A DNA stretch of 47,183 nt from Nitrospirota bacterium (GTDB taxonomy: Bacteria > Nitrospirota > 9FT-COMBO-42-15 > HDB-SIOI813): contig JACRHF010000019.1 of NCBI GenBank assembly GCA_016217665.1, positions 1-47,183 of the forward strand, read 5' to 3'. A model generated the notes under the pieces. That model saw only the letters and a list, made by a program, of their open reading frames with translations. It was not told the origin of the DNA and did not search any database. Of this stretch, positions 4,529 to 38,500 are shown one piece after another. Position numbers and translations under genes: made by a program. Position 1 is the first letter of the stretch, and each line of letters starts with the position of its first letter.

Positions 4529-4584
4529 TATACAAGGTTTAAACTGGGGCAGATGATGACCTTCATTGTGTGCTGACTTTATCT

Positions 4585-5088: not shown

Positions 5089-5153
5089 AACTAATTTTAG
5101 GGGAAAGCATATACAATGTCAATACAACGGGCATAGATTTGATGAACTCGTAG

Positions 5154-15621: not shown

Positions 15622-15844
15622 TAATGCCTCGGTGAAGGGTGGGGTCGTAGTCCCTTCGCTCCTGGCCTTCGCAGTTGACCTATCTAAGGACTCGCAGGCG
15701 GGGAAGCCTTCCAGCCTCTAACGGGCTGGCTTTTTTCGCTTCGCTCAATGCAAGCACTGCCCTCCGCCTGCTCGCCTTGACAGGGGCCCAACTGCTCCGG
15801 CAAGTTGCGAAGGGACTACGACCCCACCCTTCACCGAGGCATTA
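15622..15844. mobile_element. MITE-like palindromic element, copy 1 (223 bp, 38-nt perfect terminal inverted repeats)
   Basis: TAATGCCTCGGTGAAGGGTGGGGTCGTAGTCCCTTCGC (15622-15659) is the exact reverse complement of 15807-15844. The internal ~150 bp is shared with 43056-43297 and contains a terminator-like hairpin CCAGCCtctaacgGGCTGG followed by CTTTTTT. Confidence 0.7.
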
Positions 15845-19628: not shown

Positions 19629-21071
19629 TTAACCAGGGAAAATGGCGTTTTTGGCCAAGTCAAGGAACCACGCAGGGAGGACGCCGATGAGGATCGTGCC
19701 GGCGGCGGCAATAGCCAGGGCAAGGCTGTTGGCCGGCGAGCGGGCCAGGTCAAATTCACGGGTCGGCTCTTTCATGTAGATCAGCATCACGATGCGGATA
19801 TAGAAATAGGCGGATATGGCGCTCATGATCACGGCGATCACTGCCAGCGGAACATAACCATTCCGGATAAGGGCCATGAAGATATAAAACTTCCCGACAA
19901 AACCTGCAGTCGGCGGAATTCCGGCTAAGGAGAAGAGGAAGATGAGCATCAGAAGGGCCGCCCCCTTGTTCACCTTGGACAGGCCGGCATAGTCTTCGAT
20001 GTTCTCTCCCCTGAAATTCCCCTTCCGCATCAGGATAATCGTACCGAAGATCCCCATGTTCATGAAGGTATAGATGAGCATGTAGAGCATGACGGCCGCA
20101 ATCCCGTCCGGCCCGCCTGCCACAAGCCCGAGAAGGGCATAGCCGGCATGGGCGATGCTCGAGTAGGCCAGCATCCTCTTGATGTTGGTCTGAGACAGGG
20201 CCACGACACTCCCGACGGCCATCGTCACAATAGAGAGTGCGGCGATCAGGTTGACCCAGTTTACCGACACCGGTCCCAGGGCCCCGATAAAGACACGGAG
20301 GATGGCCGCAAACGAGGCCGCCTTCGGGCCCACAGACATAAAGGCCGTAATGGATGTCGGCGCCCCCTCATAGACATCCGGCGCCCACATATGGAACGGC
20401 ACTGCCGCTACTTTGAATCCAAATCCGGCCACCAGAAAGATGATGGCAAGGACAAGGGCCAGATCCATGCTCCCCTGCTCCTTGACTGCGGCCGCCAGGT
20501 CTGATAACTGGGTTGTTCCGGTGACGCCATAAACTAAGGATATCCCGTAGAGGAGGACCCCGGATGAGAAGGCCCCGAGGATGACGTATTTCATGGCCGC
20601 CTCGTTGGAACGTCCGTTATACTGGATAAAACCTGTCAGCACATAGATAGACAGGGCCATCAGTTCCAGCCCGATATAGATGCTGAGCAGGTCTGTCCCC
20701 GATGCCATGATCATCATGCCGCTCAGGGCAAAGAGCATCAGGACATAGTATTCCCCCCGTTCCACACCCTCCACCTTGATATAGTTTATGGACAGGAGTA
20801 CGGCTAAGAAGGTGGAAAGATAAAATACCATTTTAAAGAAGGTGGAATATCCATCGACGGTGAACATCCTGCCTAAGATCTCTCCTGAATTATTCCCCGC
20901 AAACATCCAGGTCCCGGCCGCCGCAATCAGGATTACGAACAGGGACAGGTAGGCGATAATATGCTTCTGGTTCTGATCGAGGACTAAGTCCAGCAGGATC
21001 AGAAGGCATGCACCGGAAAGGACAATAATCTCCGGCATGAGGAGCACCATATTATAGATATCGAATATCAT
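19629..21071 (-). CDS. nuoN: NADH-quinone oxidoreductase subunit N
   Basis: 480 aa polytopic membrane protein. TM5 Glu (IGLELMAL), TM7 Lys (GFKVAAVPFHMWAPDVYEGAPT). Last gene of the nuo operon. Confidence 0.9.
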   Translation of the reverse strand: MIFDIYNMVLLMPEIIVLSGACLLILLDLVLDQNQKHIIAYLSLFVILIAAAGTWMFAGNNSGEILGRMFTVDGYSTFFKMVFYLSTFLAVLLSINYIKVEGVERGEYYVLMLFALSGMMIMASGTDLLSIYIGLELMALSIYVLTGFIQYNGRSNEAAMKYVILGAFSSGVLLYGISLVYGVTGTTQLSDLAAAVKEQGSMDLALVLAIIFLVAGFGFKVAAVPFHMWAPDVYEGAPTSITAFMSVGPKAASFAAILRVFIGALGPVSVNWVNLIAALSIVTMAVGSVVALSQTNIKRMLAYSSIAHAGYALLGLVAGGPDGIAAVMLYMLIYTFMNMGIFGTIILMRKGNFRGENIEDYAGLSKVNKGAALLMLIFLFSLAGIPPTAGFVGKFYIFMALIRNGYVPLAVIAVIMSAISAYFYIRIVMLIYMKEPTREFDLARSPANSLALAIAAAGTILIGVLPAWFLDLAKNAIFPG

Positions 21072-21120
21072 AATCCCTCACGATCATTTACCTCAGTATC
21101 ATTTACCTCAGTATCATTTA
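21067..21120 (-). repeat. 15-bp tandem repeat at the nuoM/nuoN junction (2 perfect units plus 2 degenerate or partial end units)
   Basis: ATCATTTACCTCAGT at 21083-21097 and 21098-21112. A partial unit at 21113-21120 contains the nuoM stop. A degenerate unit at 21067-21082 contains the nuoN RBS and ATG. Confidence 0.9.
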
Positions 21121-22625
21121 ATCGTCGCGTAATAACCATGGACTGTATTCATCTGCTCTATCAGATGGTTGACGGATACGTGCATGATGTCGAGAAACGG
21201 CGCTGAGTTTAATCCGATCCAGAAGACAAACAGCGCCAGGACGGCCATGGCAGCGATCTCCCTGCCGTCAACATCCCATGCCTCCCGGATGTGGTGGCTC
21301 GAAACCTCGCCCAGCGCTATCTTCTTATACATCCCTAACAGATAAACCGCGCCCAGCATGGCCCCGATGATCGAGAGGCCTGCGAATACCTTATTAAATC
21401 CAAAGGCACCGGTAATAATGAGCAGCTCCCCGATGAACGAATTGGTCCCCGGGATGGCCAGAGAAGAGAGGACGAAGATGGCTAAAAAGGTCGTGTAGAT
21501 GGGGACGGCCTTGGCAAGCCCCCCATAGGCGGCAAGTTCACGGGTATGGGTCCTCTCATAGATCACGCCGATGCAGAGGAACAGGGCGCCCGTAGTTATG
21601 CCGTGATTCAACATCTGCAGGATCCCCCCCTCGATCCCCGTGGCATTCAGGACAAAGAGGCCCAGCGTCACAAACCCCATGTGGCTGATGCTGGAGTAGG
21701 CGATCAGCTTCTTGATGTCTGTCTGGGCCAGTGCCAGGAAACCGCCATAGATAATGGCGATAACCGACAAGACGACGATCGGGACGGCATAATAGGAGGT
21801 GGCATAGGGGAACATGGCCATGGGGAATCTCAGTAAACCATAGGTCCCCATCTTGAGCAGGACCCCTGCAAGGATGATACTCCCTGCGGTCGGCGCCTCC
21901 ACATGGGCATCCGGCAGCCAGGTATGGAATGGGAACATGGGGACCTTGATCGCAAAGGCGATAAAGAAGGCTAAAAAGACCCAGAGCTGCACAGGCAATG
22001 AAAACTTCTGCTGCATCAGGGCGATGATATCAAAGGTCTCTCCCCCTGCAAAGTAGAGGACGATAATGCCGATCAGCATAAAGATACTGCCGGCTAAGGT
22101 GTAGAGGAAAAATTTGAATGCGGCATATATCCTGTTCTTCCCCCCCCAGACACCGATGATCAGATACATCGGTATCAGCATAGCCTCCCAGAACAGGTAG
22201 AAGAGGAAGAAGTCCAGTGCACAGAAGACCCCGATCATGGCCGTCTGCATCACGAGTAGGGAGATCATGAACTCCTTGACCTTCTGCTCGATGGCCTTCC
22301 AGGATGCCACAACACAGATCCATCCCAGCAGGGCCGCCAGGAAGACAAAGAGGACGCTGATGCCGTCAACCCCCATGAAGTAGGTGATGTTCCAGGATGG
22401 GATCCACTGGTAGTGTTCTACAAACTGCATGTGATAGGTCGTCCTGTCAAAGTTGAGGAGAATCGGGATGGAGACGAGGAAGTCCGCCACCGTCACGGCG
22501 AGGGCGATCCACCTCACCAGGCCCGCATTCCTTACAAAGAGTAAGACAGCGGCTCCGGCTAACGGCAGGAAGGTCACTATGGATAATATGGGTATCCCCA
22601 GACTGTTGTGGACGGCCTCGATCAC
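21114..22625 (-). CDS. nuoM: NADH-quinone oxidoreductase subunit M
   Basis: 503 aa. FWEAMLIP (TM5 Glu), AIKVPMFPFHTWLPDAHVEAPTAGSIILAGVLLKMG, MLNHGITTGALFLCIGVIYERTH. All are NuoM-type motifs. Confidence 0.9.
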   Translation of the reverse strand: MIEAVHNSLGIPILSIVTFLPLAGAAVLLFVRNAGLVRWIALAVTVADFLVSIPILLNFDRTTYHMQFVEHYQWIPSWNITYFMGVDGISVLFVFLAALLGWICVVASWKAIEQKVKEFMISLLVMQTAMIGVFCALDFFLFYLFWEAMLIPMYLIIGVWGGKNRIYAAFKFFLYTLAGSIFMLIGIIVLYFAGGETFDIIALMQQKFSLPVQLWVFLAFFIAFAIKVPMFPFHTWLPDAHVEAPTAGSIILAGVLLKMGTYGLLRFPMAMFPYATSYYAVPIVVLSVIAIIYGGFLALAQTDIKKLIAYSSISHMGFVTLGLFVLNATGIEGGILQMLNHGITTGALFLCIGVIYERTHTRELAAYGGLAKAVPIYTTFLAIFVLSSLAIPGTNSFIGELLIITGAFGFNKVFAGLSIIGAMLGAVYLLGMYKKIALGEVSSHHIREAWDVDGREIAAMAVLALFVFWIGLNSAPFLDIMHVSVNHLIEQMNTVHGYYATIK

Positions 22626-22626
22626 C

Positions 22627-24390
22627 CTACCCTCCTCCCATCAGTGAATAGATGATGATAATGACCATGATCCCTACGACCATCCCGAGGGCATAGTGCT
22701 GGAGGAATCCGGTCTGTATCCGCCTGACAGAGGCGCTGATGGATAAGACGAAGGCCGCCACACTGTTGACGAACCGATCCACGATATTCCTGTCAATCCA
22801 CAGACCGATCCCGGCAAGGGAATAGATGACCGGCAGGACGATGGTATTGGAGACCTCTGTAATGAAACCCTCGTAGACCCCGACGGGCCCCTTTGCAATC
22901 CGCATGAAGACCCGGCTCCCCATCCTGTAAGACCAGTCTGTATCCAGACTGATGAGATTTTTAGGATGCAGGTACTTCAGCAGCATAAAAAAGCCCAGGG
23001 CCGTGAACATCAGTATCCCCAGGGATCCGGTGATATGGTCTCCGGTATAGGGTTCAAAATCGACGGGATAGGGGAGCACAGAATAGAGCGGACCGGGGAA
23101 TACACCGATCGCGATACACAGAAAGGCAGCGATCCCCATCCCGATCAGCATGTTGAGCGGGGGCTCTTTGGCCCGGATCCCGGAGTCATGCCCGAAGAAC
23201 ATGTGATAGGGAAGTTTGAGCGTGGTCGAGAGAAAGGTGCCGGACGAAGCCAATACCAGCAGGAGCGATACAATCGCCTTGTGGTCGTGGTTTGCGGCGG
23301 CGACGATCATCGACTTGCTGACAAAACCGCTGAAGAAGGGGAATGCCGATATGGAAAACCCGGCGATCATATAGAGTATCATTGTTAAAGGCATGGTCTT
23401 GTAAAGCCCGCCAAGGTCTGAGAGTTTGCGCTTGCCGGTCATGTATATCACAGAACCGGCCCCCATAAAGAGGAGCCCCTTGTAGAGGATATGGGTAAAT
23501 GCATGGGACACAGAACCGTTCAGGGCCAGCTCTGACCCCAAGCCGATGCCGGTCACCATGTAACCGACCTGACTGACAATGTGGTAGGCCAGCAGCCTGC
23601 GGAAATCATTCTGCAGCATCGCATATCCGACGCCGTATACCGTCATCACCACCCCAAGCCACATCAGCATCTCCGTACCGGCAAAGGCACGCACCAGGAC
23701 ATAGACCGCAGTCTTTGTGGTAAAGGCGGACATGAAGACAGCCCCGGTCACCGTCGCCTCCGGATAGGCATCGGGGAGCCACGCATGGAGCGGCGGCACA
23801 GCGGCGTTCAAGATAAATCCGATCATGATCAGATAAAAACCCATACTCCCGTCATGCTCAATAGGCCCGAAGAGGATCGAACCGGTATCCGCATAATGGA
23901 GGATAATGCCGCCTAATAAACAGACACCGCCGAATACGTGCACCAGGAGATAGCGGAAACCTGCATCAATCGAACGTCTCTCCCGCCTTGCAAAGACCAG
24001 ATAGGCCGAGGCAAAGGCCATGATCTCCCAGAAGACAAAGAGGGTAAAATAGTCGCCGGCAAATACAACCCCTAAGGAGCTGCCTACATAGAGGAATGCC
24101 GCCATGTGCTGTCCCGGATCGTCGACGTGGAGGGAATAGACCATCCCGATAAAGGCCATCAGGGTAAAAACATAGGAGAAGACCAGGCTGAGTTTATCCA
24201 CCTTGCCGAATATGATCTCATGGCCGAGGAAGCTGTGCGCCCCGTAGGTGCCCTCGCCTGCAGAAAAGACGGCTATCATGGCGAATGCCGGGATCAGGAC
24301 GAGATAGGCCTTCCGCACATTCCCTTTAAGGAACGGGATCAGGAATGCCCCCGCGATAAATAAGATGGACGGATGAAACCAATCAATCAT
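22627..24390 (-). CDS. nuoL: NuoL-like antiporter-type subunit carrying the C-terminal lateral-helix/anchor tail; Asn at the TM7 Lys position
   Basis: Start set at ATG 24390 (GAGG 7 nt upstream), giving 587 aa. NuoL-type SHAFTHILYKGLLFMGAG and a C-terminal ...RRIQTGFLQHYALGMVVG tail. The TM7 motif reads ILNAAVPPLHAWLP (Asn codon AAC at 23806-23808). Confidence 0.75.
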   Translation of the reverse strand: MIDWFHPSILFIAGAFLIPFLKGNVRKAYLVLIPAFAMIAVFSAGEGTYGAHSFLGHEIIFGKVDKLSLVFSYVFTLMAFIGMVYSLHVDDPGQHMAAFLYVGSSLGVVFAGDYFTLFVFWEIMAFASAYLVFARRERRSIDAGFRYLLVHVFGGVCLLGGIILHYADTGSILFGPIEHDGSMGFYLIMIGFILNAAVPPLHAWLPDAYPEATVTGAVFMSAFTTKTAVYVLVRAFAGTEMLMWLGVVMTVYGVGYAMLQNDFRRLLAYHIVSQVGYMVTGIGLGSELALNGSVSHAFTHILYKGLLFMGAGSVIYMTGKRKLSDLGGLYKTMPLTMILYMIAGFSISAFPFFSGFVSKSMIVAAANHDHKAIVSLLLVLASSGTFLSTTLKLPYHMFFGHDSGIRAKEPPLNMLIGMGIAAFLCIAIGVFPGPLYSVLPYPVDFEPYTGDHITGSLGILMFTALGFFMLLKYLHPKNLISLDTDWSYRMGSRVFMRIAKGPVGVYEGFITEVSNTIVLPVIYSLAGIGLWIDRNIVDRFVNSVAAFVLSISASVRRIQTGFLQHYALGMVVGIMVIIIIYSLMGGG

Positions 24391-24418
24391 GACAACCTCG
24401 TAAAAAGTCTCGACAGCG

Positions 24419-24544
24419 GACGGCTTCGTAAAAAGCTCCATATGCAAGGCGCGCAAATCCTGAGGAATGAGGCGTACTTGTAGCTACGCCGCAATGACGA
24501 AGGATGCAGCGCAACGCCGCAGATGGACTTTTTACAAAGCCGTC
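24419..24544. repeat. nested-hairpin palindromic element inside the nuo operon
   Basis: GACGGCTTCGTAAAAAGCTCC (24419-24439) pairs imperfectly with GGACTTTTTACAAAGCCGTC (24525-24544). There are internal sub-hairpins, e.g. GGCGTActtgtagcTACGCC. The outer arms resemble those at 2979-3108. Confidence 0.75.
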
Positions 24545-24794
24545 AGTCATAGTAATCCTCTTTCTTCAAGAGCCATACACTCCCGAGGAACTTAAAGACT
24601 GCAATAATCGCGACACAGGAGACAAATCCATAAAAGGCGCTCCAGCCGGGTATCGCATCCCAGGCAAAGGCAATATGGTGACGGGAGGCGATAAAATCCG
24701 ATGCAAATACAACCACCAGGATGACGTAAAATATCGCCCTCCGTTTACCGGCATTCTCAGGGTCGCAAATATAATCCACCATTCCCTTGATCAT
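24543..24794 (-). CDS. small two-TM membrane protein encoded within the nuo operon
   Basis: 83 aa. ATGA stop/start overlap with the upstream antiporter-like gene. Two hydrophobic segments (AIFYVILVVVFASDFI; SAFYGFVSCVAIIAVFKFLG). I recognise no family. Confidence 0.55.
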   Translation of the reverse strand: MIKGMVDYICDPENAGKRRAIFYVILVVVFASDFIASRHHIAFAWDAIPGWSAFYGFVSCVAIIAVFKFLGSVWLLKKEDYYD

Positions 24795-26278
24795 CGAATA
24801 ACAATCTCCTTAGCCAGACTCAGGAAATAATTCGGATAGATACCAATAAGGATCGAGATAATGGCCGTAAGGACCAGCGGGATTGCCACCATCGGGATCT
24901 CTTTAATATCTCCTTCATGACCGTGACCACCTCCGGAATGATGATCATTGGGTTCCTCAAAGAATGCCTTGTAAGTGATGGGTAAAAAATATGCGGCATT
25001 TAAAATCGTGCTGGTTAAGAGGACGATCAGGATCGGTATTTCCTTCGCCTCAACCGATCCGATGACAAGGTACCACTTGCTGATAAAGCCGGCGGCAGGC
25101 GGCACTCCGATCATGCTGAGGGATGCGAGAAAGAATGCCGTCATGGTCCAGGGGAGCTTGCGGCCGATACCGGAGAGCTGGCTGACCTCGGTCTTGTGCG
25201 CGGCACAGTAAATAGAGCCGGCACAGAAGAACAGCGTGATCTTGGAAAAGGCGTGGTTGGCAATGTGCACAATCCCGCCGATCATGCTGCTCGGGGTGAG
25301 GAGCACCGCGCCCAGGATGACATAGGAGAGCTGGCTGACGGTGGAATAGGCCAGCCGCCTCTTCAGATTATCCTGAGTCAGGGCATAGACCGATGCCATG
25401 ATGATCGTGAAAGAGACCACGTAGGCCGTGGCCATCCCAAGGTTCAACTCAGCCATCAGTTTCGTGCCGAAGACATGGAAGATGACCCGCAGCACCGAAA
25501 AGACGCCCATCTTCACCACAGCCACCGCGTGCAGGAGCGCACTGACGGGCGTGGGGGCCACCATGGCCGCAGGGAGCCACGCATGAAACGGCATAATCGC
25601 GGCCTTTGAAAAGCCGACCATGAAACAGATATAGACAACGGTTAAGAGCAGGGGCGAGGCTGAGGTATTCGCCAGCAGACCCTGATCTGAAAAATCAAGA
25701 TTCCCCGTGATATAGTAGGTCAGTGCAATCGCGGCTAACAAAAAGGTCTTGGAGGTGCCGACCAGATAGACGACATATTTCTTGCTCCCCTGCCAGGACT
25801 CCTCTGTCTCCTTGTGATAGACAAGGGGATAGGTCACCAGACTCAGGACCTCATAGAAGACGATCAGCGTAAACAGGTTGGCGGCGAATGCCCCGCCCAC
25901 CGCGGCGAAGATACTGACGCTGAAACTGGCGAAGAACCTCGTCTGGGCGTGCTCTTTCGCACTCCGCATGTAGCCTACAGAATAGACAGAGGCAAATATC
26001 CAGAGAAAGGACGCTATCGTGGCAAAGACCATCCCTAAGGCATCCACCCTGAATTTAAAGGGAACGCCGGGGAGTGTATTAAAGAGGGTGTATTCGATGG
26101 TCCTGCCGGAGAGGATGACCGGCGCCATCGAGATGACGATCAAAAACGTCAGGATCGCCGCCAGAAAGGATGTCGCATCCCTCAGGTTAGGGGTCTTCTG
26201 AAAAAACAATATCAGGAAAGCAGCCGTCAGGGGAAGAAACAGTGCAAGCAGCGGTCTTATGGACTCAATCGTTTCCAC
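24791..26278 (-). CDS. additional NuoL/MrpA-like antiporter-type subunit lacking the lateral-helix tail
   Basis: 495 aa, starts 4 nt after nuoK. FYEVLSL (TM5 Glu), FSKAAIMPFHAWLPAAMVAPTPVSALLHAVAVVKMG (L/MrpA-type PTPVSAL-HA), HIANHAFSKITLFFCAG, GFISKWY. It ends after a His-rich loop (NDHHSGGGHGHEGD) and one more TM. Confidence 0.75.
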   Translation of the reverse strand: METIESIRPLLALFLPLTAAFLILFFQKTPNLRDATSFLAAILTFLIVISMAPVILSGRTIEYTLFNTLPGVPFKFRVDALGMVFATIASFLWIFASVYSVGYMRSAKEHAQTRFFASFSVSIFAAVGGAFAANLFTLIVFYEVLSLVTYPLVYHKETEESWQGSKKYVVYLVGTSKTFLLAAIALTYYITGNLDFSDQGLLANTSASPLLLTVVYICFMVGFSKAAIMPFHAWLPAAMVAPTPVSALLHAVAVVKMGVFSVLRVIFHVFGTKLMAELNLGMATAYVVSFTIIMASVYALTQDNLKRRLAYSTVSQLSYVILGAVLLTPSSMIGGIVHIANHAFSKITLFFCAGSIYCAAHKTEVSQLSGIGRKLPWTMTAFFLASLSMIGVPPAAGFISKWYLVIGSVEAKEIPILIVLLTSTILNAAYFLPITYKAFFEEPNDHHSGGGHGHEGDIKEIPMVAIPLVLTAIISILIGIYPNYFLSLAKEIVIR

Positions 26279-26282
26279 TATT

Positions 26283-26585
26283 CTACCCTTTCATCGTCTG
26301 GATTTCATCCACATTAAGGGCGGCCTTGTTTCTCACCAGGGCAATCAGAATGCCCAGGGCAATGGCCACCTCGGCGGCTGCAATCGTAATTACGAATATC
26401 GAGAATATCTGCCCCCTCAGATCCTGGAGAAAATAGGAGAAGGCCACAAGATTGATATTGACCGAGTTTAGGATCAGTTCCACCGACATCAGGATGATCA
26501 GGATATTTCTTCTCAAAAGGACGCCTGAAGTCCCGATGATAAAGAGGAGAGCGCTCAGGATAATATACCAAGACAAGGGGACCAT
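26283..26585 (-). CDS. nuoK: NADH-quinone oxidoreductase subunit K
   Basis: 100 aa, three TM segments. Conserved ELILNSVN and [12 protein letters not shown] motifs. Confidence 0.9.
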
Positions 26586-26589
26586 GCTC

Positions 26590-27102
26590 CTATCTCAGCT
26601 CCTTTCTACCCAACACAATCGCGCCTAACAAGGCGACTAAGAGTATCAGCGACACCACCTCGAAGGGGAGAATATACTTTGTAAACAACGCCTCCCCTAC
26701 CTCCCTCACGGTCCCGGTAAGGCGGCCCGCCGCAGGCGCTGTGATGACGGCCAGCCTGCTCCTTGAGACAATCAGCACCATCTCAATGACCAGCACCCCT
26801 AAGAGGGCGATCACCCATAACTGCCCTCCGGAGACAAACCGTTCCATGCCGGCCTTGGAGATATCCAACATCATGATGACAAAGAGGAAGAGCACCAGCA
26901 CCGCACCCACATAGACAAACACCTGGACCACGGCAATAAAGGGGGCGCGCAGCATGACGAATAATGCCGCCATCTGTAAGAAACAGACCATCAGGGATAT
27001 GACGCTGTGGACCGGATTTCGGAGAGAAACGACGGCGATCGCTGATCCTACGGCCAATATTGCAAAGACAAAGAAAAACATCTGCTCCGCCACTACCACC
27101 AC
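26590..27102 (-). CDS. nuoJ: NADH-quinone oxidoreductase subunit J
   Basis: 170 aa membrane protein. NPVHSVISL and [17 protein letters not shown] are typical of NuoJ. Operon position between nuoI and nuoK. Confidence 0.85.
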
Positions 27103-27668
27103 CTCTTCTGAACACTCATGTCCGGGACAATCTTTATCCCTGTTTCATCTGTCTCCAGCCTCGCCTTCACAATGACGCCCCCCTCGAACTCCCCAGGGAT
27201 CGCCTGGGGGGTCAGGAGTTCTTCCTTGGTCCGGAGCTGCCTCTGCATCGAGGTGCCGGCCAGTTCATACTCCCTCCCCAGCTTCAACGCCTCGGTCGGG
27301 CAGGCATCCTCACACAACCCGCAGAACATACAGCGCAGGAGATTGATCTCCCACCGGTAAGCTACCCGGTCTGCGATCCCCTTCCCTGTCGTGTCCTGCA
27401 TGGGGACTACCGTAATACACTGGGTAGGACACGACTTTTGGCACAGCTCGCACCCAACACATAATTCCTTCCCCTCTTTATTCCTGTTCAGCGTATGGAG
27501 CCCGCGGAATCTTCTGTACGGGATCCACGTCTCCTCGTCAGGGTATTTCATGGTAACGGTCTTAGAAAAGGTATAGTTGAATGTGATAAACAATCCCTGG
27601 ATGAGGTCTAAGAAAAAGACCTTTTTCAGAAGCCCCTTCAGATCAAAGTTGTGATGGTTCCCGTTCAT
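27093..27668 (-). CDS. nuoI: NADH-quinone oxidoreductase subunit I (2x[4Fe-4S])
   Basis: Start set at ATG 27668 (ATGA overlap with the nuoH stop). CVGCELCQKSCP and CMFCGLCEDACP ferredoxin motifs. Confidence 0.9.
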   Translation of the reverse strand: MNGNHHNFDLKGLLKKVFFLDLIQGLFITFNYTFSKTVTMKYPDEETWIPYRRFRGLHTLNRNKEGKELCVGCELCQKSCPTQCITVVPMQDTTGKGIADRVAYRWEINLLRCMFCGLCEDACPTEALKLGREYELAGTSMQRQLRTKEELLTPQAIPGEFEGGVIVKARLETDETGIKIVPDMSVQKRWW

Positions 27669-28648
27669 ATGATTATCAACCCCGTAATCAGGATGTTCGC
27701 CAGCGATAACGGCAGGAGTATCTTCCACCCGATGCTCATGAGCTGGTCATACCGGTATCGAGGAAAAGTAAACCGGGTCCATATAATGATATAGATCAGC
27801 ATCGCCACCTTCAGCAGGAACCATAGGATACCCGGAAGAAAGACCGGGCCGTCCCACCCGCCCAGGAACAGGAGGACGATCAGGATAGACATCGAGACCA
27901 TGGCCACATACTCGGTCAGCATAAAAAATGCAAATCTCATCGAACTGTACTCCGCATGATAACCGGCGCCCAGGGTCCCTTCATCCTCCGGCAGGTCAAA
28001 GGGAATGCGGTTGATCTCTGCCAGCCCTGCGATAAAAAAGATGACAAATCCAACCGGCTGGTACAGGATATTCCAGTGCCACCCGGACTGGGCCCTCACG
28101 ATATCTAAAAGGCTCAGGGAGTTTACAATCATCACTACCCCGATGCAGGCAAAACTCAGGGCCAGCTCATAACTGATCATCTGCGCTGAGGAACGGAGGC
28201 CGCCGAGCAGGGGATACTTGCTGTTGGAAGCCCACCCGCCGAGGATAATCCCGTAGACGCTCAGGCCTGCGATGGCCAGGACGTAGAGTATCCCTGTGTC
28301 CATATTCGAGATGTACAGATTGACCTCATAATTTACAATGGGGAGGGTCACCTTTTCCCCGAAGGGGATCGTGGCAAACACGGCAAAGGCCGGAACCATG
28401 GCGATGACAGGCGCTATCCTGAAGAGCCACGGGTCTGCCTTTGCAGGGACGATGTCCTCCTTGAACATGAGCTTGATCATGTCTGCAAAGGGCTGCAGGA
28501 TCCCATGCGGACCAACCCGGTAAGGACCGAGCCTGACCTGGATATGCCCTGCCACCTTCCGCTCGATGTAGGTCAAGGGAAGCGGGAGTGCAAACACAAT
28601 CAGGGTAACAACCACCACCTTAATGCCTATCAAAAGCAACTCGATCAT
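27665..28648 (-). CDS. nuoH: NADH-quinone oxidoreductase subunit H
   Basis: 327 aa. GPHGILQPFADMIKLMFKED and EYSSMRFAFFMLTEY motifs. Confidence 0.92.
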   Translation of the reverse strand: MIELLLIGIKVVVVTLIVFALPLPLTYIERKVAGHIQVRLGPYRVGPHGILQPFADMIKLMFKEDIVPAKADPWLFRIAPVIAMVPAFAVFATIPFGEKVTLPIVNYEVNLYISNMDTGILYVLAIAGLSVYGIILGGWASNSKYPLLGGLRSSAQMISYELALSFACIGVVMIVNSLSLLDIVRAQSGWHWNILYQPVGFVIFFIAGLAEINRIPFDLPEDEGTLGAGYHAEYSSMRFAFFMLTEYVAMVSMSILIVLLFLGGWDGPVFLPGILWFLLKVAMLIYIIIWTRFTFPRYRYDQLMSIGWKILLPLSLANILITGLIII

Positions 28649-28659
28649 CGTCTTTCGGC

Positions 28660-29130
28660 CTACCTCTTCCTACCCCACATATAATTGATCATCTCTAAGT
28701 ATCTTGCGTTCATCCCTCTCACGATGGAGTGTATATTGAATACAACACTTTTGAGCATCTTATAAATCAGGCGGGGATGGCTGTCAACTAAGGTCTCAAA
28801 ATCCGCCTTCTCCAGCACGTACACCTTTGTATCCGCAATCGCCACAATGGTCGCAGAACGGGGCCTGCTGTCCAGGAAAGACATCTCGCCGAAGATGTCG
28901 CCATCTTTGTGCAGGGTCAGTGTCAGGAGGTCCCCTTCCGGCGTCGCCTTGCATGCCTTGACCTCTCCCCTTTTGATGACGTAGAGGGATTGTCCGTCTT
29001 CTCCCTCTTTGAATATGGTAGTCCCAAGCTTAAAATCCTTCTCTTTTAACACCTGGGAGACAATATTCAATTCTTCGTCGTTCAGATCTGAGAAAAAATG
29101 GATATCACGAAGCGATTTCGGATCTATCAT
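28660..29130 (-). CDS. stand-alone cyclic nucleotide-binding (CNB/Crp-type effector) domain protein embedded in the nuo operon
   Basis: 156 aa. Beta-roll and phosphate-binding cassette GDIFGEMSFLDSRPRSATIVA, with no HTH or other output domain. ATGA overlap with the nuoG stop, and its own stop lies 11 nt before the nuoH ATG. Confidence 0.8.
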   Translation of the reverse strand: MIDPKSLRDIHFFSDLNDEELNIVSQVLKEKDFKLGTTIFKEGEDGQSLYVIKRGEVKACKATPEGDLLTLTLHKDGDIFGEMSFLDSRPRSATIVAIADTKVYVLEKADFETLVDSHPRLIYKMLKSVVFNIHSIVRGMNARYLEMINYMWGRKR

Positions 29131-31670
29131 TTTATCCCCCCGCCGTGAGATTTACCCGTAAGAGGGAGCACCCTCACCCTTGGGAGCCCCTCCCCTTTTG
29201 TGAAAAACATATTGACACGGACATCTGTAAAGTTCTCCGGTATAAAGACAACACCTTTTGCAGACCTCTTGTTCACGTGCACCGTCAATACGGCCTCATA
29301 CCGCTCCCCTTTTACCGTGACCTTATCCCCTTTTCCAACCCTCAGATCCTTTGCATCCTCTTCGCTGATCTCGACAATGGCTTCGGACAGGATATCCCTT
29401 AAGGTGTCCGTCCTGAGAGAAAGCCTCCCGGAGTGATAGAGATGATTCCCTGTGATCAGGACGAAGGGATAATTGGGATCAGGAGAGGTAGAAGGCATCT
29501 GGCTGGCCGCTGAGGGGACAGATTTCAAATCTGTCCCCTCACTGCTGCCTGCTGCCTTCACTATTGCCCCGTTCCCATCCAGGCTCTCAAAGGCGATCTC
29601 ACGATACATCGGTGCCACCTCTTTGATCTCCTCAAAGATCCCGGCCACAGACCCATAGTTAAATGAGGGATCCACGGCCGCACCGACAGCGGCAATGATC
29701 TCCCAGTCCGCCTTTGCATCCCCCTGGGGCGGCACGAATCTCCTTAACCTCTGGACCCTGCCTTCCTGATTCGTAAAGGTCCCGTCTTTTTCAACAAAGC
29801 TTGCGCCGGGCAGGACCACGCTGGCCATCTTGGCCGTCTCGGTGAGGAACATATCCTGGACGATCAGGAACTTAACCCGGCGGAGGGCCTCTTCGACAAA
29901 CCTTCCATCCGGAAAATCAGAGACAATATCTTCACCGATGACATACAAGACGTCCACCTCTCCCCGCGACGATGCCTCCAACATCCCCTCACATCCCAGG
30001 CCATTCCCGTCCGTGAAACTGTAGCCGGGCAGGATAGCCGGATGAACACCCATCTCCCAGGCCCCCCTCTGGTTTGCCCTGTCAAAGACAGGGAAGAGCT
30101 TGACCTCTTTGCCCAAAAGCCGCAGCGTCCCGACAAGGATGTTCAGGAATTCCAATCGCGAGGGCCCTCTTAATACGTCATTTCCCACAACAATAGTCAC
30201 CGATTTGGAGGATGACATGAAATCTGCAGCAGACTCTATCCTGCCCCAGTCTATGCCGGTCAGCGAGGAGACACTTTCCTTTGAGATATTTTTAATCTGC
30301 TCCCTGCCGGAGAGATCATTCAATTGATCTGCATTCTTATCATAAAGGACTTTGGAGATCCCGCTGAGGATCTCCCCTTCGGCGGCTGGTCTGTGCCGGA
30401 GGGTCAGGGCCGCAGAGCTGTCGAGCTTCATCCCCCTCGGAGAGGCGATGATGATGTTCATCTTTTTATTCTTAGACAGGCGCCTGATCATATAGTCTGT
30501 GACAGGATTTTCATCCGAGATGCCGGACCCGATAACGAGCAGCGTATCCGTGTTTAAGGCATCATATACCGATACACCGCCCCTCCTGAGCTCCATGACC
30601 TCCGCGAATGTCTTCACGGTACTGCTATTCCACCGGCTGCTGGAATCTATGTGGTTTGTCTTCAACACCACCCTCATCAGCCTCTGGAAGAGATAGAGTT
30701 CCTCGTTGGAAAGCCGGCTTGAGGCAATCCCCCCGATCTTCCCTCCGTTTCTTACGACCCCGGTGATCCCTTCCTTGATCGTCTTGAGGGCCTCGCCCCA
30801 TGTGGCGGGTTCAAGCATCCCCCCTTTCCGGATCATGGGGGTCACAAGTCGATCATGGCTCTGGATAAAGGAATAGCCATATCTCCCTCTGGCGCACAAC
30901 GTCTCATTATTGATCCCTTTATCCGGCTTTGAGATGACCCGAAGGACCTCGCCGTTCCTGGCCTGCACCGTTAACTGACAACCCGTGCCGCAGTAGGTGC
31001 ACACCGTATCCACCCCTCTCAGATCCCAGGATCTTGACTTATACCGGAAGGAGCGGCTCATCAACGAGCCGACCGGACAGACCTCGATGCAGTTGCCGCA
31101 ATGATCGCAGTCTAAGTATTCTTTAACAAAACTGGTCTCCCCTGTCCCGGCGCCGCGGTCAATGGACCCTAACACCCCCGCGCCGACCGTCTCGGCACAG
31201 ATGCGGACACACCTCTTGCACTGGATGCACCGGTTGACATTCTGGACAATGACAGGACTCAGGATATAGTCTTCCTCGTGGAACCGCCTCTTTTCTTCGC
31301 CAAAGGGGCTCTTTCGCGGACCGAACTTAAAGGTGACATCCTGCAGCTCGCACTCGCCCCCTTTATCGCATACCGGGCAATCAAGCGGGTGATTCGCCAG
31401 GAGGAGATCAATCATGGCCGACCTGGCAGACTTAACCACCGGAGATTCGGTCAGAACCTCCATCCCGTGCATGACCGGGGTCACGCAGGAGGGCTGGAGC
31501 TTCTTCTGGCCCACAATCTCTACAAGGCAGACCCTGCAGGAGGCCAGCTTGCTGAGCCTCGCATGAAAGCACATCGTGGGTATCTCAAACCCTGCGCTCG
31601 TTGCCGCATCCAGGATCAGGGTCCCGTCCTCGACTGTAATCTCTTTCCCGTTTATTTTTACGGTGGCCAT
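29127..31670 (-). CDS. nuoG: NADH-quinone oxidoreductase subunit G
   Basis: 847 aa. N-terminal 2Fe-2S (CRVCLVE), HPLDCPVCDKGGEC, 4Fe-4S motifs CIQCKRCVRIC and CDHCGNCIEVCPVG, then a molybdopterin-oxidoreductase-like domain. Confidence 0.92.
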   Translation of the reverse strand: MATVKINGKEITVEDGTLILDAATSAGFEIPTMCFHARLSKLASCRVCLVEIVGQKKLQPSCVTPVMHGMEVLTESPVVKSARSAMIDLLLANHPLDCPVCDKGGECELQDVTFKFGPRKSPFGEEKRRFHEEDYILSPVIVQNVNRCIQCKRCVRICAETVGAGVLGSIDRGAGTGETSFVKEYLDCDHCGNCIEVCPVGSLMSRSFRYKSRSWDLRGVDTVCTYCGTGCQLTVQARNGEVLRVISKPDKGINNETLCARGRYGYSFIQSHDRLVTPMIRKGGMLEPATWGEALKTIKEGITGVVRNGGKIGGIASSRLSNEELYLFQRLMRVVLKTNHIDSSSRWNSSTVKTFAEVMELRRGGVSVYDALNTDTLLVIGSGISDENPVTDYMIRRLSKNKKMNIIIASPRGMKLDSSAALTLRHRPAAEGEILSGISKVLYDKNADQLNDLSGREQIKNISKESVSSLTGIDWGRIESAADFMSSSKSVTIVVGNDVLRGPSRLEFLNILVGTLRLLGKEVKLFPVFDRANQRGAWEMGVHPAILPGYSFTDGNGLGCEGMLEASSRGEVDVLYVIGEDIVSDFPDGRFVEEALRRVKFLIVQDMFLTETAKMASVVLPGASFVEKDGTFTNQEGRVQRLRRFVPPQGDAKADWEIIAAVGAAVDPSFNYGSVAGIFEEIKEVAPMYREIAFESLDGNGAIVKAAGSSEGTDLKSVPSAASQMPSTSPDPNYPFVLITGNHLYHSGRLSLRTDTLRDILSEAIVEISEEDAKDLRVGKGDKVTVKGERYEAVLTVHVNKRSAKGVVFIPENFTDVRVNMFFTKGEGLPRVRVLPLTGKSHGGGIK
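29511..29541. repeat. 31-nt perfect palindrome of the GGGGACAGATTT family inside the nuoG coding sequence
   Basis: TGAGGGGACAGATTT c AAATCTGTCCCCTCA read directly. It encodes SEGTDLKSVPS in the nuoG frame. Confidence 0.95.
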
Positions 31671-31698
31671 GTTAATCCTGCTCTAAATCCGCCCTTAG

Positions 31699-31746
31699 CC
31701 CAATCCCCCTTTTTCCCCCTTTATTAAAGGGGGATTATAGGGAGGC
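31699..31746. repeat. CCCCCTTT..AAAGGGGG nested palindromic element (copy 2)
   Basis: CCCAATCCCCCTTTTTCCCCCTTTATTAAAGGGGGATTATAGGGAGG in the nuoF-nuoG spacer. Related copies at 19561-19603 and 38451-38500. Confidence 0.85.
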
Positions 31747-31750
31747 TTAT

Positions 31751-31785
31751 CTGTTCACTGTTCACTGTTCACTGTTCACTGTTCA
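31751..31785 (-). repeat. heptanucleotide tandem repeat (CTGTTCA)5, = (TGAACAG)5 on the coding strand
   Basis: Five perfect units read directly. The nuoF stop codon (31776-31778) and its last codons lie within the array. Confidence 0.97.
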
Positions 31786-33047
31786 CTATTTACCATGCAT
31801 CTCTTATGTTTTACATGATACTCAAACTCTTCCCTGAAATTATTGATCGCGCCCCTCAGGGCCATCACGGCGCCGTCGCCGAGGGGACAGAAGGTGCGGC
31901 CAAAGATATCCCCGCATAATTTAAGGAGGACTTCCACATCCCCCTCTTTCCCTTCACCATGCTCCACCCTCCGCATCACCTTGACAATCCAGTCGAGCCC
32001 TTCCCGGCAGGGGGTACACTTGCCACACGACTCATGGTGAAAGAATTCATGGACAATCAGGGCCCCCTTCACAATGCAGGTCTTCTCGTCCATAACGACC
32101 ACAGCGCCACTTCCCAGCATCGTCCCCTTGGCCGCAAGGGAGTCAAAATCCATCGGGGTATCCAGGTCTTTCTCCGTCAGCATCGGGGCAGATACGCCGC
32201 CAGGAATCACGGCCTTTAACCTTCGGTCCCCTTTGATCCCCCCGGCATGGGTATAGATGATCTCGCGGAGCGGTGTCCCCATCGGGAGCTCATAGAGACC
32301 CGGCTTATTCACATGTCCGCTGACCCCGAACAGCTTGGGCCCCGGGCTTTTGGCCGGCCCGATAGCAGCAAACCACGCTGCCCCTCTGTTGATAATGTGC
32401 GGGATGCAGGCCAGGGTCTCCACATTATTGATAACCGTTGGTTTTCCAAAAAGACCGACTTGGGCCGGAAAGGGGGGTTTTATCCTCGGCAGGGCGCGCC
32501 GGCCTTCCAACGACTCCAGGAGGGCCGTCTCCTCGCCGCAGATATATGCCCCGGCACCCCGGTGCACATAAATATTGAGACTGAATTTGCTCCCCAGGAT
32601 ATTATTCCCCAGATATCCCTTTGCATGGGCCTCCCGGATCGCCTCCTCAAGCCTGTCCGCGCCGAGGGTGAATTCCCCGCGGATGTAGATGTAGGCGTTG
32701 TTCGCTCCGATAGCATAGCAGCCTATTGCAATCCCCTCAAGGAGCTGATGGGGGTCCTTCTCAATGATCGCCCTGTCCTTATAGGTGCCCGGCTCCCCCT
32801 CATCTGCATTGCAACAGAGATACTTGGGGATGGTAGGATCTTTCGGGATAAAACTCCACTTCAGTCCTGTCGAGAAGCCGGCCCCGCCGCGCCCTCTCAG
32901 GCCGGAGTCCTTGACCATCTGGATGATCGTATCCGTGTTCATCTCAAGGGCCTTTTTCAGGGCCTGATACCCGCCGCTGTTAAGATATGCCGTTAGCTTA
33001 AACGAATCAGGGGCATTCATATTTTTCAGAATCACAGGTTCAAACAT
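31776..33047 (-). CDS. nuoF: NADH-quinone oxidoreductase subunit F
   Basis: 423 aa. GRGGAGFSTGLKW (FMN/NADH site), ESCGKCTPCREG (cluster N3). Confidence 0.95.
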   Translation of the reverse strand: MFEPVILKNMNAPDSFKLTAYLNSGGYQALKKALEMNTDTIIQMVKDSGLRGRGGAGFSTGLKWSFIPKDPTIPKYLCCNADEGEPGTYKDRAIIEKDPHQLLEGIAIGCYAIGANNAYIYIRGEFTLGADRLEEAIREAHAKGYLGNNILGSKFSLNIYVHRGAGAYICGEETALLESLEGRRALPRIKPPFPAQVGLFGKPTVINNVETLACIPHIINRGAAWFAAIGPAKSPGPKLFGVSGHVNKPGLYELPMGTPLREIIYTHAGGIKGDRRLKAVIPGGVSAPMLTEKDLDTPMDFDSLAAKGTMLGSGAVVVMDEKTCIVKGALIVHEFFHHESCGKCTPCREGLDWIVKVMRRVEHGEGKEGDVEVLLKLCGDIFGRTFCPLGDGAVMALRGAINNFREEFEYHVKHKRCMVNSEQ

Positions 33048-33070
33048 AGCTTTACTTTTTACAGGGTCGT

Positions 33071-33119
33071 CTTCTTGCTTCTTGCTTCTTGCCTCTTGCT
33101 TCTTACTTCTTACTTCAGC
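33071..33119 (-). repeat. heptanucleotide tandem repeat (CTTCTTG)n, about 7 units, = (CAAGAAG)n on the coding strand
   Basis: CTTCTTG x3, then CCTCTTG, CTTCTTA x2, CTTCAGC. The nuoE stop (33110-33112) lies inside the array, which fills most of the nuoE-nuoF spacer. Confidence 0.95.
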
Positions 33120-33574
33120 CCCTTCAGTATCTCCTCTATCTTCTCTTTTGTGAGGTCTTCATGGTATCTATCGTTTATCTGCATCATCGGGGCAGTCCCG
33201 CAAGAGCCAAGGCACTCTACAGCAGAGAGTGTAAACCTCTTATCCGGGGTAGTCTCCTTCACCTTGATCCCTAATCTCTGGGAGAGGAAATCCATAATAT
33301 GATCAGCCCCCAGGAGAGAGCAGGATATGTTCGTACAGACCTGTATATGGTACTTGCCTACAGGTTTTTTGTTGTACATGGTGTAGAAGGTAGCCACCTC
33401 AAAGACCTGGACAGGCCGCAGGCCGAGGATGTTCGCGATCTCCCGCATTCCCTCCTCGTTGACGTAGCCATATTCCCTCTGAACCACAAAGAGTGCGGGC
33501 ATGACAGCAGACCGCTTATTGGCATATTTGCCGGTCAGCTCGTTAATCTCTTTTACTGCGCCCTCTGAAAGCAT
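33110..33574 (-). CDS. nuoE: NADH-quinone oxidoreductase subunit E
   Basis: 154 aa. Thioredoxin-like 2Fe-2S motifs VCTNISC and CLGSCGTAP. Confidence 0.93.
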   Translation of the reverse strand: MLSEGAVKEINELTGKYANKRSAVMPALFVVQREYGYVNEEGMREIANILGLRPVQVFEVATFYTMYNKKPVGKYHIQVCTNISCSLLGADHIMDFLSQRLGIKVKETTPDKRFTLSAVECLGSCGTAPMMQINDRYHEDLTKEKIEEILKGLK

Positions 33575-33590
33575 CTTACTGCTCCCCCCT

Positions 33591-33618
33591 CTTCTTGCTT
33601 CTTGCTTCTTCTTACTTA
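33591..33618 (-). repeat. heptanucleotide tandem repeat (CTTCTTG)n, about 3-4 units
   Basis: CTTCTTG CTTCTTG CTTCTTC TTACTTA. The nuoD stop (33612-33614) lies at the array end. Same unit as the array at 33071-33119. Confidence 0.9.
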
Positions 33619-34823
33619 TCTACCTCTCCGAACACCGGATCCAGGCTGGATATCACCGCCACCACGTCCGCAAAGTAGGCCCCGCGGGACATCGGATCAA
33701 CACTCTGCAGGTTCACAAAGGACGGCGCCCGGATCTTTACCCTGAAAGGCCGCTCAGACCCATCGCTTACGATATAGAAACCCAGTTCCCCTTTGGGGGC
33801 CTCGATAGAGGAGTAGACCTCACCCTTGGGGACCTTAAACCCATGAGAGATCAGCTTGAAGTGGTGGATAAGGGCCTCCATGTTGGTGGTGATATCCCTT
33901 CTGGGAGGCGAGACAAACTCAGGGACATCGGCATTCACAGGCCCCTCCGGCATCTGTTCCAGGGCCTGGGCAATAATCCTGCTGGCCTGCCTCATCTCTT
34001 CTACCCGCACCATGTATCTGTCAAAGCAGTCTCCATTCCCGCCGGCCGGCACCTTAAAATCAAACCGGTCATAAACGAGATAGGGCGTGTCCTTCCGGAT
34101 ATCCCACTTCACGCCGGACCCTCGCAGAGACGGGCCGGTAAGGCCGAGGTCTACGGCATCCTCTGCGGATATGACCCCCACACCCTTGTTTCTCTGAAGC
34201 CAGATCCTGTTTCCTGTCAGGAGTTGTTCATACTCATCCACCCGCTTTGGAAATATCTGAACAAAGTCCCTGCACTTTTCTTTAAACCCGGAAGGGAGGT
34301 CTCCCCTCACCCCGCCGATCTTCATGTAGTTGTAAGTGAGTCTCGCGCCGCAGAGCATTTCAAAGAGGTCCAATATCATTTCCCGCTCTCTGAAGGCATA
34401 AAGGACGAGGGTGACCGCCCCTAAATCAAGACCCCAGGCGCCAACGGCTAAGAGATGACTCGATATGCGCGAGAGTTCAGATGTGATGACCCTGATATAT
34501 TTGCCCCTCTCAGGAATATCAAGGCCAATCAGCTTCTCTACAGCCATCACGTAGGAGAGGTTATTCGTCATGCTGCTCAGATAGTCCAACCTGTCTGTGT
34601 AGGGAACGAACTGGGAATACAAGAGGTTTTCAGCGATCTTTTCCATACCCCGGTGGAGGAATCCAATATCCGGCTCTGCCTTTACAATCTTCTCACCCTG
34701 CATCCGAAGGACAAGGTGCATCACTCCATGGGTCGAGGGGTGCTGCGGCCCCATGTTCAGGGTGACCTCTTTGGTGATGATATCCTCTCCGTTATTGGAG
34801 GCGATGCTGACGATATCTTCCAT
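33612..34823 (-). CDS. nuoD: NADH-quinone oxidoreductase subunit D
   Basis: 403 aa. LNMGPQHPSTHGV, GFLHRGMEK and a C-terminal RIRAPSF-like segment (KIRAPSFVNLQ). Confidence 0.95.
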   Translation of the reverse strand: MEDIVSIASNNGEDIITKEVTLNMGPQHPSTHGVMHLVLRMQGEKIVKAEPDIGFLHRGMEKIAENLLYSQFVPYTDRLDYLSSMTNNLSYVMAVEKLIGLDIPERGKYIRVITSELSRISSHLLAVGAWGLDLGAVTLVLYAFREREMILDLFEMLCGARLTYNYMKIGGVRGDLPSGFKEKCRDFVQIFPKRVDEYEQLLTGNRIWLQRNKGVGVISAEDAVDLGLTGPSLRGSGVKWDIRKDTPYLVYDRFDFKVPAGGNGDCFDRYMVRVEEMRQASRIIAQALEQMPEGPVNADVPEFVSPPRRDITTNMEALIHHFKLISHGFKVPKGEVYSSIEAPKGELGFYIVSDGSERPFRVKIRAPSFVNLQSVDPMSRGAYFADVVAVISSLDPVFGEVDK

Positions 34824-34827
34824 ACGT

Positions 34828-35355: not shown

Positions 35356-35361
35356 GCCTCC

Positions 35362-38450: not shown

Positions 38451-38500
38451 CCAATTCCCCTCAATCCCCCTTTAATAAAGGGGGAATAAGGGGGATTATT
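38451..38500. repeat. CCCCCTTT..AAAGGGGG nested palindromic element (copy 3)
   Basis: CCAATTCCCCTCAATCCCCCTTTAATAAAGGGGGAATAAGGGGGATTATT read directly. Confidence 0.85.

Follow-up and report, generated by a model that had tools for sequence, protein, structure and literature searches.

How a complex I is built, and to which kind it belongs, when its operon carries four antiporter-like genes downstream of nuoK is the question raised by contig JACRHF010000019.1, a stretch of 47,183 nucleotides from a Nitrospirota bacterium that was analysed as a whole and is called the window in the following. Enzymes with four or more pump subunits are relevant to the number of ions moved per electron pair by complex I and to reverse electron transport in organisms close to thermodynamic limits. 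On the minus strand of the window, from position 36191 to 19629, a colinear nuo operon was found which reads nuoA-B-C-D-E-F-G, a gene for a cyclic nucleotide monophosphate (cNMP)-binding protein, nuoH-I-J-K, X495, s83, Y587, nuoM and nuoN. This operon probably encodes an NADH-linked complex I of the "green" type with 14 subunits, in which NuoL would be replaced by the Mrp-derived trio X495-s83-Y587 and in which the antiporter-like part of the membrane arm would follow the order N-M-Y-(s83)-X.

A complex I operon without canonical nuoL

The four large genes code for proteins of 495 (X495, 24791-26278, minus strand, GTG start), 587 (Y587, 22627-24390, minus strand), 503 (nuoM, 21114-22625, minus strand) and 480 amino acids (nuoN, 19629-21071, minus strand), all of which match PF00361 (E 1e-47 to 1e-82), X495 matching the N-terminal domain PF00662 as well. 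In the initial annotation, made from the sequence alone, the four had been read as lying in a row behind nuoK, as sharing a glutamate in the fifth transmembrane helix (TM5; contexts FYE, FWE, FWE and LEL) and as sharing the motif (F/L)HxW(L/A)P. Number and position of the genes agree with the open reading frames (ORFs), the PF00361 matches and the family models, and both sequence features were recovered in all four proteins; strict adjacency was not, as an ORF of 83 amino acids (s83, 24543-24794, minus strand) and an inserted element of about 150 bp separate X495 from Y587. The ATG at 24390 was taken as start of Y587, rather than the TTG at 24456 to which the mechanical ORF extends, because about 120 homologues of 584-590 amino acids begin with MIDW.

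NuoM (TIGR01972, 628 bits) and NuoN (TIGR01770, 493 bits) pass their family models, whereas X495 and Y587 stay below the cut-offs of two NuoL models, scoring 203 and 160 bits on TIGR01974 (cut-off 407.5) and 214 and 173 bits on NF005141 (cut-off 556), respectively. The operon therefore holds four antiporter-like subunits and no canonical NuoL, and neither the ORFs nor the family models revealed a canonical nuoL between nuoK and nuoM, where the order is K-X-s83-Y-M-N. Both proteins are matched end to end by curated NCBIfam models, X495 by NF006236 (769.9 bits, cut-off 663) and Y587 by NF009310 (763.5 bits, cut-off 564), each of which names its members Na+/H+ antiporter subunit D.

Relation to green complex I and to other enzymes with additional pump subunits

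When Y587 was compared with plasmids by tblastn, 174 records were retrieved, mainly from Sinorhizobium and Rhizobium. On plasmid pSymA of S. meliloti the same block is found, whereby nuoJ and nuoK are followed by genes for an antiporter subunit D family protein of 487 amino acids, a hypothetical protein of 84 amino acids, which is the counterpart of s83, an antiporter subunit D protein of 586 amino acids, nuoM, nuoN and then nuoA-G. Identities between window and pSymA amount to 66% for X, 49% for s83, 66% for Y, 64% for NuoM and 60% for NuoN, and nuoE, nuoF and nuoG are present in both operons, which are orthologous. The rhizobial system bears the name green complex I, and a pair of MrpD-like subunits takes the place of NuoL in it (Yu et al. 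2022, PMC9040806), X495 corresponding to "MrpD-like 1" and Y587, the MrpA-type protein, to "MrpD-like 2"; in strains possessing it, the rhizobial green-type enzyme is upregulated in symbiosis (review, PMC7415380). Judged by sequence, the window operon is of the green complex I type, an architecture already named, widespread and covered by curated hidden Markov models, and with an orthologous operon published under that name the initial suggestion of a differently built architecture beyond the known ones has to be given up. Initially, one of the four subunits had also been singled out as extra and of NuoL type; that there are four subunits is correct, but which of them is extra is a matter of definition, as the whole X-s83-Y unit takes the place of NuoL.

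Window and pSymA differ in three respects. On pSymA the genes stand in the rearranged order J K X s Y M N A B C D E F G, and nuoI and nuoH lie on the opposite strand, whereas the operon of the window is colinear from nuoA to nuoN; the window has the cNMP-binding gene between nuoG and nuoH and pSymA a CBS-domain gene after nuoG; and the host belongs to a Nitrospirota-like lineage (closest locus L001, "Nitrospirae bacterium nzgw272") as opposed to the rhizobia. The rearranged order, which the window and its close relatives do not share, was treated as a trait of the rhizobial lineage and not as one that defines the enzyme. The green-type layout, described for rhizobia, is thereby now documented in a Nitrospirota-like, anaerobe-associated lineage.

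Two kinds of four-pump complex I were distinguished by Yu et al. (PMC9040806), one of them being the Nitrospira 2M type with an extra NuoM. According to the account given there of Chadwick et al. (2018, ISME J 12:2668), the 2M enzyme has a duplicated NuoM and keeps a NuoL with a 26-residue insert in its lateral helix, and the citing papers (PMC9040806 among them) mention the proposal that it translocates a fifth proton or assists reverse electron transport. It resembles the window operon in that four antiporter-like subunits belong to one complex I; the window, however, is without NuoL, its X and Y come from Mrp-derived families and its additional subunit is no NuoM paralogue. Candidatus Manganitrophaceae possess Complex_I_3 (Yu et al. 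2022, PMC9040806), in which the same MrpD-like pair replaces NuoL, yet a second NuoM brings the number of pump subunits to five as compared with four in the window. One of the loci collected here, L055, which has the order Y-M-M-N and a 26-residue insert in the Y helix, appears to be of the Complex_I_3 type.

A scan of species-representative genomes yielded 537 stretches encoding a relative of Y587, the best 80 of which were kept and are referred to by L numbers. At 37 of these 80 loci the X-s83-Y cassette lies inside a nuo operon (K-X-s83-Y-M-N), at 16 it is clearly outside, and 27 are on contigs too short to tell. The nuo-context loci include those of Nitrospirota with nuoEFG and the cNMP-binding gene (74-91% identity), which are the close relatives of the window, many Desulfobacterota with an 11-subunit core, Motiliproteus (Gammaproteobacteria), Syntrophus and an archaeal metagenome-assembled genome (MAG). 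The green-type layout is common among the Desulfobacterota loci and is also found in a Dehalococcoidia MAG, one gammaproteobacterium and archaea. At L079, from an uncultured delta proteobacterium MAG, a nuo-type X-s83-Y operon is apparently split into many frame-shifted pieces, which could be a long-read assembly error or a decaying copy.

In a neighbour-joining tree of 53 subunits (200 bootstrap replicates), X and Y each form a clade of their own (100% each), separate from NuoM (99%) and NuoN (100%). The X, M and N proteins of the window group with those of S. meliloti and Motiliproteus at 86-98%, with NuoM beside the green-type NuoM of S. meliloti and that of Motiliproteus at 96% and NuoN beside the green-type NuoN of S. 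meliloti at 98%; the Y proteins of window and S. meliloti share a clade of 85%, which also holds a Desulfobacterota Y.

Key residues and build of X495 and Y587

Key residues were compared in an alignment of the window proteins with E. coli NuoL, NuoM and NuoN and 44 other family members. X495 has the complete relay set, comprising the TM5 Glu, the TM7 Lys, His/His/Lys in TM11 and the TM12 Lys, and in TM8 it carries a His followed by a Lys six residues on, as in MrpA and HyfD. Such a TM8 His was seen only in MrpA and NuoL by Sperling et al. 2016 (PMC4938563). Within the helix-VIII motif H254/T257/M258/V259, X495 reads H-A-V-V (HAVAVV as compared with HAATMV), whereby the His and the final Val match, whereas Y587 matches none of the four. 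The helix-VIII His and the PF00662 domain are features of X495 in common with canonical NuoL and MrpA, from which it differs by having no lateral helix, as its 495 residues form 14 TM helices and end after TM14. The PTPVSALLHA segment pointed out initially is indeed present.

The tail is confined to Y587, as had been noted at the outset, and it consists of TM15, a long helix and TM16 behind a 14-TM core, as in canonical NuoL (E. coli, T. thermophilus Nqo12) and MrpA. In the AlphaFold2 model TM15 comprises residues 450-469, a single helix residues 486-559 (74 residues, about 110 Å) and TM16 residues 563-585; the best Foldseek matches of the model are MrpA and NuoL/NdhF chains, over their full length. 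By sequence, the last third of the tail resembles NuoL of Paracoccus (E 7.6e-4) and of M. smegmatis, including the motif ..D..VN..A....R..QTG....YA..M, and Y587 stops after TM16, without the C-terminal MbhD/MbhE-like domain of MrpA.

Among its key residues are the TM5 Glu (Glu122), a TM8 Lys as in NuoM, NuoN and MrpD, His/His/Lys in TM11 and the TM12 Lys. In TM7, Asn195 replaces the Lys that corresponds to K229 of E. coli NuoL (in which E144 is the TM5 Glu), and the register is fixed because the P-x3-W motif aligns. This Asn is found in all 120 close Y homologues out of 120 and in all Y proteins from Mrp and other contexts, whereas the TM7 Lys is kept by X495, NuoM and NuoN of the window and by all NuoL, NuoM, NuoN, MrpA, MrpD, Hyf and X proteins aligned, with the second NuoM of L055 (Ile) as exception; the TM5 Glu is present in all proteins aligned. 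Y587 is hence of the MrpA/NuoL-type build, with lateral helix and TM16, and yet has a TM8 Lys and no TM7 Lys. The Ile of L055 (gene at 3519-5213 of a locus from Nitrospirales MAG OFTM238, five-pump type) makes its second NuoM another added pump subunit that lacks the TM7 Lys.

Both proteins had initially been called L-type. The build of Y587 and the helix-VIII His of X495 fit this label, which is nevertheless too simple, as both miss the NuoL cut-offs and as Y587 departs from canonical NuoL in TM7 and TM8. The TM11 motif HxxxHxxxK, likewise taken as a NuoL/MrpA signature, occurs in both proteins but is not specific, since HyfB and HyfF have it too and MrpD has its second His and its Lys. Among solved structures, the best sequence match of Y587 is chain 6u8y_X of the Pyrococcus MBS complex (MbsH/MbsH'; E 1.4e-40), and for X495 the cyanobacterial NdhF chain 6hum_F ranks first and MbhH (6cfw_H) next. 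MbsH/MbsH' and MbhH belong to ferredoxin-linked complexes, identity is just about 25-30%, and the nearest solved relatives of Y587, i.e., MbsH', MbhH and MrpD, retain the TM7 Lys.

Occurrence of the cassette in Mrp antiporter operons

The two non-nuo loci that were inspected, L028 from Methanoperedens and L038 from a Nitrospirota MAG, are Mrp antiporter operons, with the orders MrpE-F-G-MbhD-MbhE-MnhB-MrpC-MrpD-X-s83-Y and X-s83-Y-MnhB-MrpC-MrpD-MrpE-F-G, respectively. Their cassettes share 50-65% identity with that of the window as well as the TM7 Asn in Y and the EDYYD terminus of s83, whereas their partner genes are MrpB/C/D/E/F/G (or MbhD/MbhE/MnhB) and not nuo genes. The Y protein of L038, 765 amino acids long and provided with MbhD and MbhE domains, has the full MrpA build; it aligns end to end with solved MrpA (6z16_A, E 1.3e-71; 7qru_A, E 9.8e-63), and its TM14-TM16 region comprises 100 residues as compared with 99. 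Y is therefore an MrpA-type subunit to which X and s83 are additions. In Mrp contexts the helix of Y is about 30 residues shorter, Y may be fused to the MrpA C-terminal domain, and some of these proteins end without the NuoL-like QTG..YA motif; the nuo form lacks this C-terminal domain, and its tail ends in a NuoL-like manner. In some Mrp-type clusters of Desulfatiglandales/Desulfobacteraceae (L043-L053, L072) a second Y-type gene follows Y, and the one read whole (L051, 12673-14436) has its own tail and a TM7 Asn, which gives four antiporter-like genes in a Mrp operon.

Considering these findings, it was proposed, with the chances judged to be about even, that X-s83-Y is a portable pump-extension cassette which was added to Mrp antiporters and to complex I alike, with s83 as obligate subunit, Y as MrpA derivative devoid of the TM7 Lys and the length of the lateral helix as a ruler. 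If so, the loss of the TM7 Lys in Y would imply that charge is passed on differently at this point of the proton relay. What is new here is that X-s83-Y is viewed as a cassette and traced to Mrp antiporters, that the helix length is read as a ruler, that the TM7 Asn is invariant and that there is a small subunit without annotation, the operon itself being a further example of a named but little-studied enzyme. In the literature searched, which did not include the 2016 FEMS paper and Chadwick 2018, no report of s83 as a subunit, of the TM7 Asn or of the helix ruler was found.

Lateral-helix length and order of the membrane arm

The ruler is the stretch between two motifs of Y, namely DTDW, where the lateral helix begins, and Q(T/S)G, which precedes TM16. 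It amounts to 46 residues in L038, where Y has one proximal subunit (MrpD), to 76-77 residues in 25 nuo-context proteins accompanied by NuoM and NuoN, the window included with 76 (16 others are without Q(T/S)G and hence unmeasurable), and to 102 residues in L055 (Y-M-M-N) and L050, to which the 26-residue insert is confined. This step of 26 residues equals the insert size given by Yu et al. (PMC9040806) for the five-pump enzyme. The length of the lateral helix of Y thus appears to follow the number of subunits on its proximal side, being one, two and three. X is present both in L038 and in nuo contexts without a lengthening of the helix, while in L055 and L050 what lies upstream of Y is cut off by the contig edge. 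Since X adds no helix length and the helix of solved MrpA spans only MrpD, X is probably not positioned under the helix, which argues for the order N-M-Y-X.

In the model suggested here the membrane arm would run NuoH/A/J/K - N - M - Y - (s83) - X and hold four antiporter-like subunits, whereby the amphipathic lateral helix and TM16 of Y587 would strap this subunit to NuoM and NuoN, as in NuoL, and X495 and s83 would most likely be located on the distal side of Y587. An alternative arrangement of the same four-pump enzyme, considered unlikely though the best of the rivals, is N-M-X-Y, with X495 beside NuoM and Y587 in distal position, its helix reaching over X, M and N. For this order it may be argued that X495, with its NuoL/MrpA-type TM8 His and its PF00662 domain, would offer a normal Glu/Lys pair to the TM12 Glu of NuoM, that the Lys missing from TM7 of Y could come from the invariant TM12 Lys of X across a constant interface, and that the strap of every known complex belongs to its most distal subunit. 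Furthermore, the distance from FD/DTD to QTG is about 74 residues in Y as compared with 45-50 in NuoL of E. coli and Legionella, a difference of about one subunit, though the equivalence of the FD/DTD motifs is uncertain. What speaks against N-M-X-Y is the length of the helix region, which in L038 equals that of solved MrpA spanning MrpD only and leaves no room for X, and the TM15-TM16 gap, which exceeds that of NuoL by merely 6-15 residues, when one subunit costs 26-31 residues as judged from L055 and L038. A placement of X by the hydropathy gap was dropped as decisive argument, as the values for Y lie midway between canonical ones (E. coli and Legionella NuoL, Vibrio MrpA).

Several observations weigh against the green-type enzyme with the order N-M-Y-(s83)-X as it is suggested here. 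In the order N-M-Y-X the TM12 Glu of NuoM would face Glu122 and Asn195 of Y and no Lys, while N-M-X-Y would be electrostatically more canonical, as NuoM TM12 Glu would face the Glu/Lys pair of X and the TM12 Lys of X the Glu/Asn pair of Y. Compared with NuoL alone the ruler is ambiguous, the TM15-TM16 gap being 95 residues in Y587 and 80-89 in NuoL, and in the AlphaFold2 model of Y587 the confidence score (pLDDT) averages 79 and drops to just 50-60 in the tail. The deep nodes of the tree, which would link X and Y to MrpA, MrpD, NuoL and Hyf, have support below 50%. Ion specificity (H+ or Na+) is not readable from the sequence, and the literature searched contained neither a structure nor biochemistry of any green-type complex I member.

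Proposed function of the additional subunit

For the green-type enzyme with X495 and s83 incorporated, the extra subunit would probably add one ion per catalytic cycle, i.e., about 5 instead of 4 H+ would be translocated per 2 e-. Operating in reverse, the enzyme would make reverse electron transport less costly per ion.

A different role, regarded as quite improbable, is that the cassette retains a Mrp-like job, meaning Na+ transport or Na+/H+ exchange, which would render the enzyme sodium-coupled or provide it with a built-in antiporter. This idea draws on the presence of the same cassette in true Mrp operons, whose Y is MrpA, on the names given to both proteins by the NCBIfam models and on the loss of the TM7 Lys from Y, which hints at altered chemistry. 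In Mrp antiporters, Na+ is handled in the region of the small subunits. The nuo operon of the window contains no genes for MrpE, MrpF or MrpG, and X retains the full set of proton-relay residues. MrpA and MrpD, moreover, are thought to take part in proton translocation in the solved Mrp structures (PMC7419157).

As experimental handles on the relay, s83, the natural Lys-to-Asn exchange at a residue called universally conserved and the series of helix lengths with one, two and three proximal subunits are at hand, and with their help structural work or mutagenesis could address the tolerance of the relay towards an additional subunit.

Integrity and identity of X495

X495, s83 and Y587 are under purifying selection. 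For X495 and Y587 the ratios of nonsynonymous to synonymous substitution rates (dN/dS) are 0.07 and 0.11, respectively, relative to the closest relative. The initial annotation had named two readings that would refute its interpretation, namely X495 as a split or pseudogenised piece of NuoL and X495 as a second NuoM, and both were rejected. According to the first, X495 and Y587 would be the two halves of a split and decaying NuoL and would not both be functional. This reading takes up that the pair fills the nuoL slot, that there is one tail only and that the inserted element lies between s83 and Y587, but it can hardly be upheld, as each protein is a complete 14-TM core that matches its curated model end to end and as the lengths are kept across phyla, the length of about 495 amino acids in dozens of genomes. 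The two share 28% mutual identity and fall into separate clades, and the insertion duplicated the start/stop overlap in such a way that both ORFs are intact, with GAGG 6 nt before the ATG of Y587. The dN/dS of 0.07 also argues that X495 is not a fragment.

Least credible of all is an ordinary second NuoM as in 2M complexes, since X495, albeit an extra 14-TM antiporter-like protein of about 495 amino acids encoded in a nuo operon, reaches only 201.6 bits on TIGR01972 (cut-off 263.8) as compared with 770 bits on NF006236, falls into the separate X clade outside the 99% NuoM clade, has a TM12 Lys where NuoM has Glu, together with the TM8 His and the TM11 Lys, and is encoded in an operon without a NuoL bearing the 26-residue helix insert. 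The initial view that the layout is unlike the 2M type was thereby corroborated. X495 is accordingly neither a second NuoM nor a fragment of NuoL, and it is predicted to be a complete pump-type subunit without strap.

The small protein s83

The ATG of s83 overlaps the stop codon of X495, and in the relatives the stop codon of s83 in turn overlaps the start of Y (TATGACTGA in L001). The gene was detected by tblastn at 66 of the 80 related loci and by motif search at most of the remaining ones, hence at almost all loci whose sequence upstream of Y is at hand. Its product has two predicted TM helices, a conserved His/Trp-Asp/Pro-Gly loop and an invariant acidic-aromatic C-terminus, EDYYD, and its dN/dS is 0.37 relative to the closest relative and 0.13 relative to the next one. 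A search of 1.84 billion cluster representatives returned 294 representatives related to s83, nearly all of them stand-alone proteins of 62-130 amino acids, and none in which s83 is fused to X or Y; there is therefore no fusion-based clue to its partner. Neither Pfam nor NCBIfam nor the PDB sequences, the last of these searched with a profile, gave a match. By its build s83 would be a two-helix accessory protein; that it serves as glue or cap where X and Y meet is a guess.

The inserted element and further features of the window

Between the stop codon of s83 and the start codon of Y587, exactly at the junction that overlaps in the relatives, the window carries a palindromic element of about 150 bp (24393-24540, minus strand) which is not part of the enzyme. 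It is flanked by ATGACT and ATGATT, the junction being duplicated, and folds as a long hairpin (dG -66.9 kcal/mol, z -5.2). Exact matches to its 25-nt arm are contained in 70 metagenome contigs, and the aligned copies share both ends and have flanking duplications of 6-8 bp. The element is a dispersed one resembling a miniature inverted-repeat transposable element (MITE). It might affect the translational coupling of Y587; nothing suggests a dead gene, and a promoter and terminator scan around the element found nothing.

The upstream part of the operon, comprising the ORFs of nuoA-G, the cNMP-binding gene and nuoH-K (26283-36191, minus strand), has Pfam matches for NuoJ, NuoK and the cNMP-binding protein, and its gene order is the same in the closest relatives L001-L003. 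The cNMP-binding protein, encoded between nuoG and nuoH, consists of 156 amino acids (28660-29130, minus strand; PF00027, E 2.9e-24) and shares 76-90% identity with its counterparts in these three loci. Together with the CBS-domain gene that follows nuoG on pSymA, this points to small ligand-sensing proteins as companions of the enzyme type.

Two copies of a different MITE-like element with 56-nt terminal inverted repeats are located at 15622-15844 and 43055-43298 and share an identical 80-nt core (15688-15767 and 43133-43212). A 42-nt inverted repeat pair with 90% complementarity (31702-31743 and 38456-38497) has one arm in the nuoF-nuoG intergenic gap, and a 174-nt direct repeat of 86% identity is found at 10793-10966 and 11865-12038, the two copies being 1072 nt apart.

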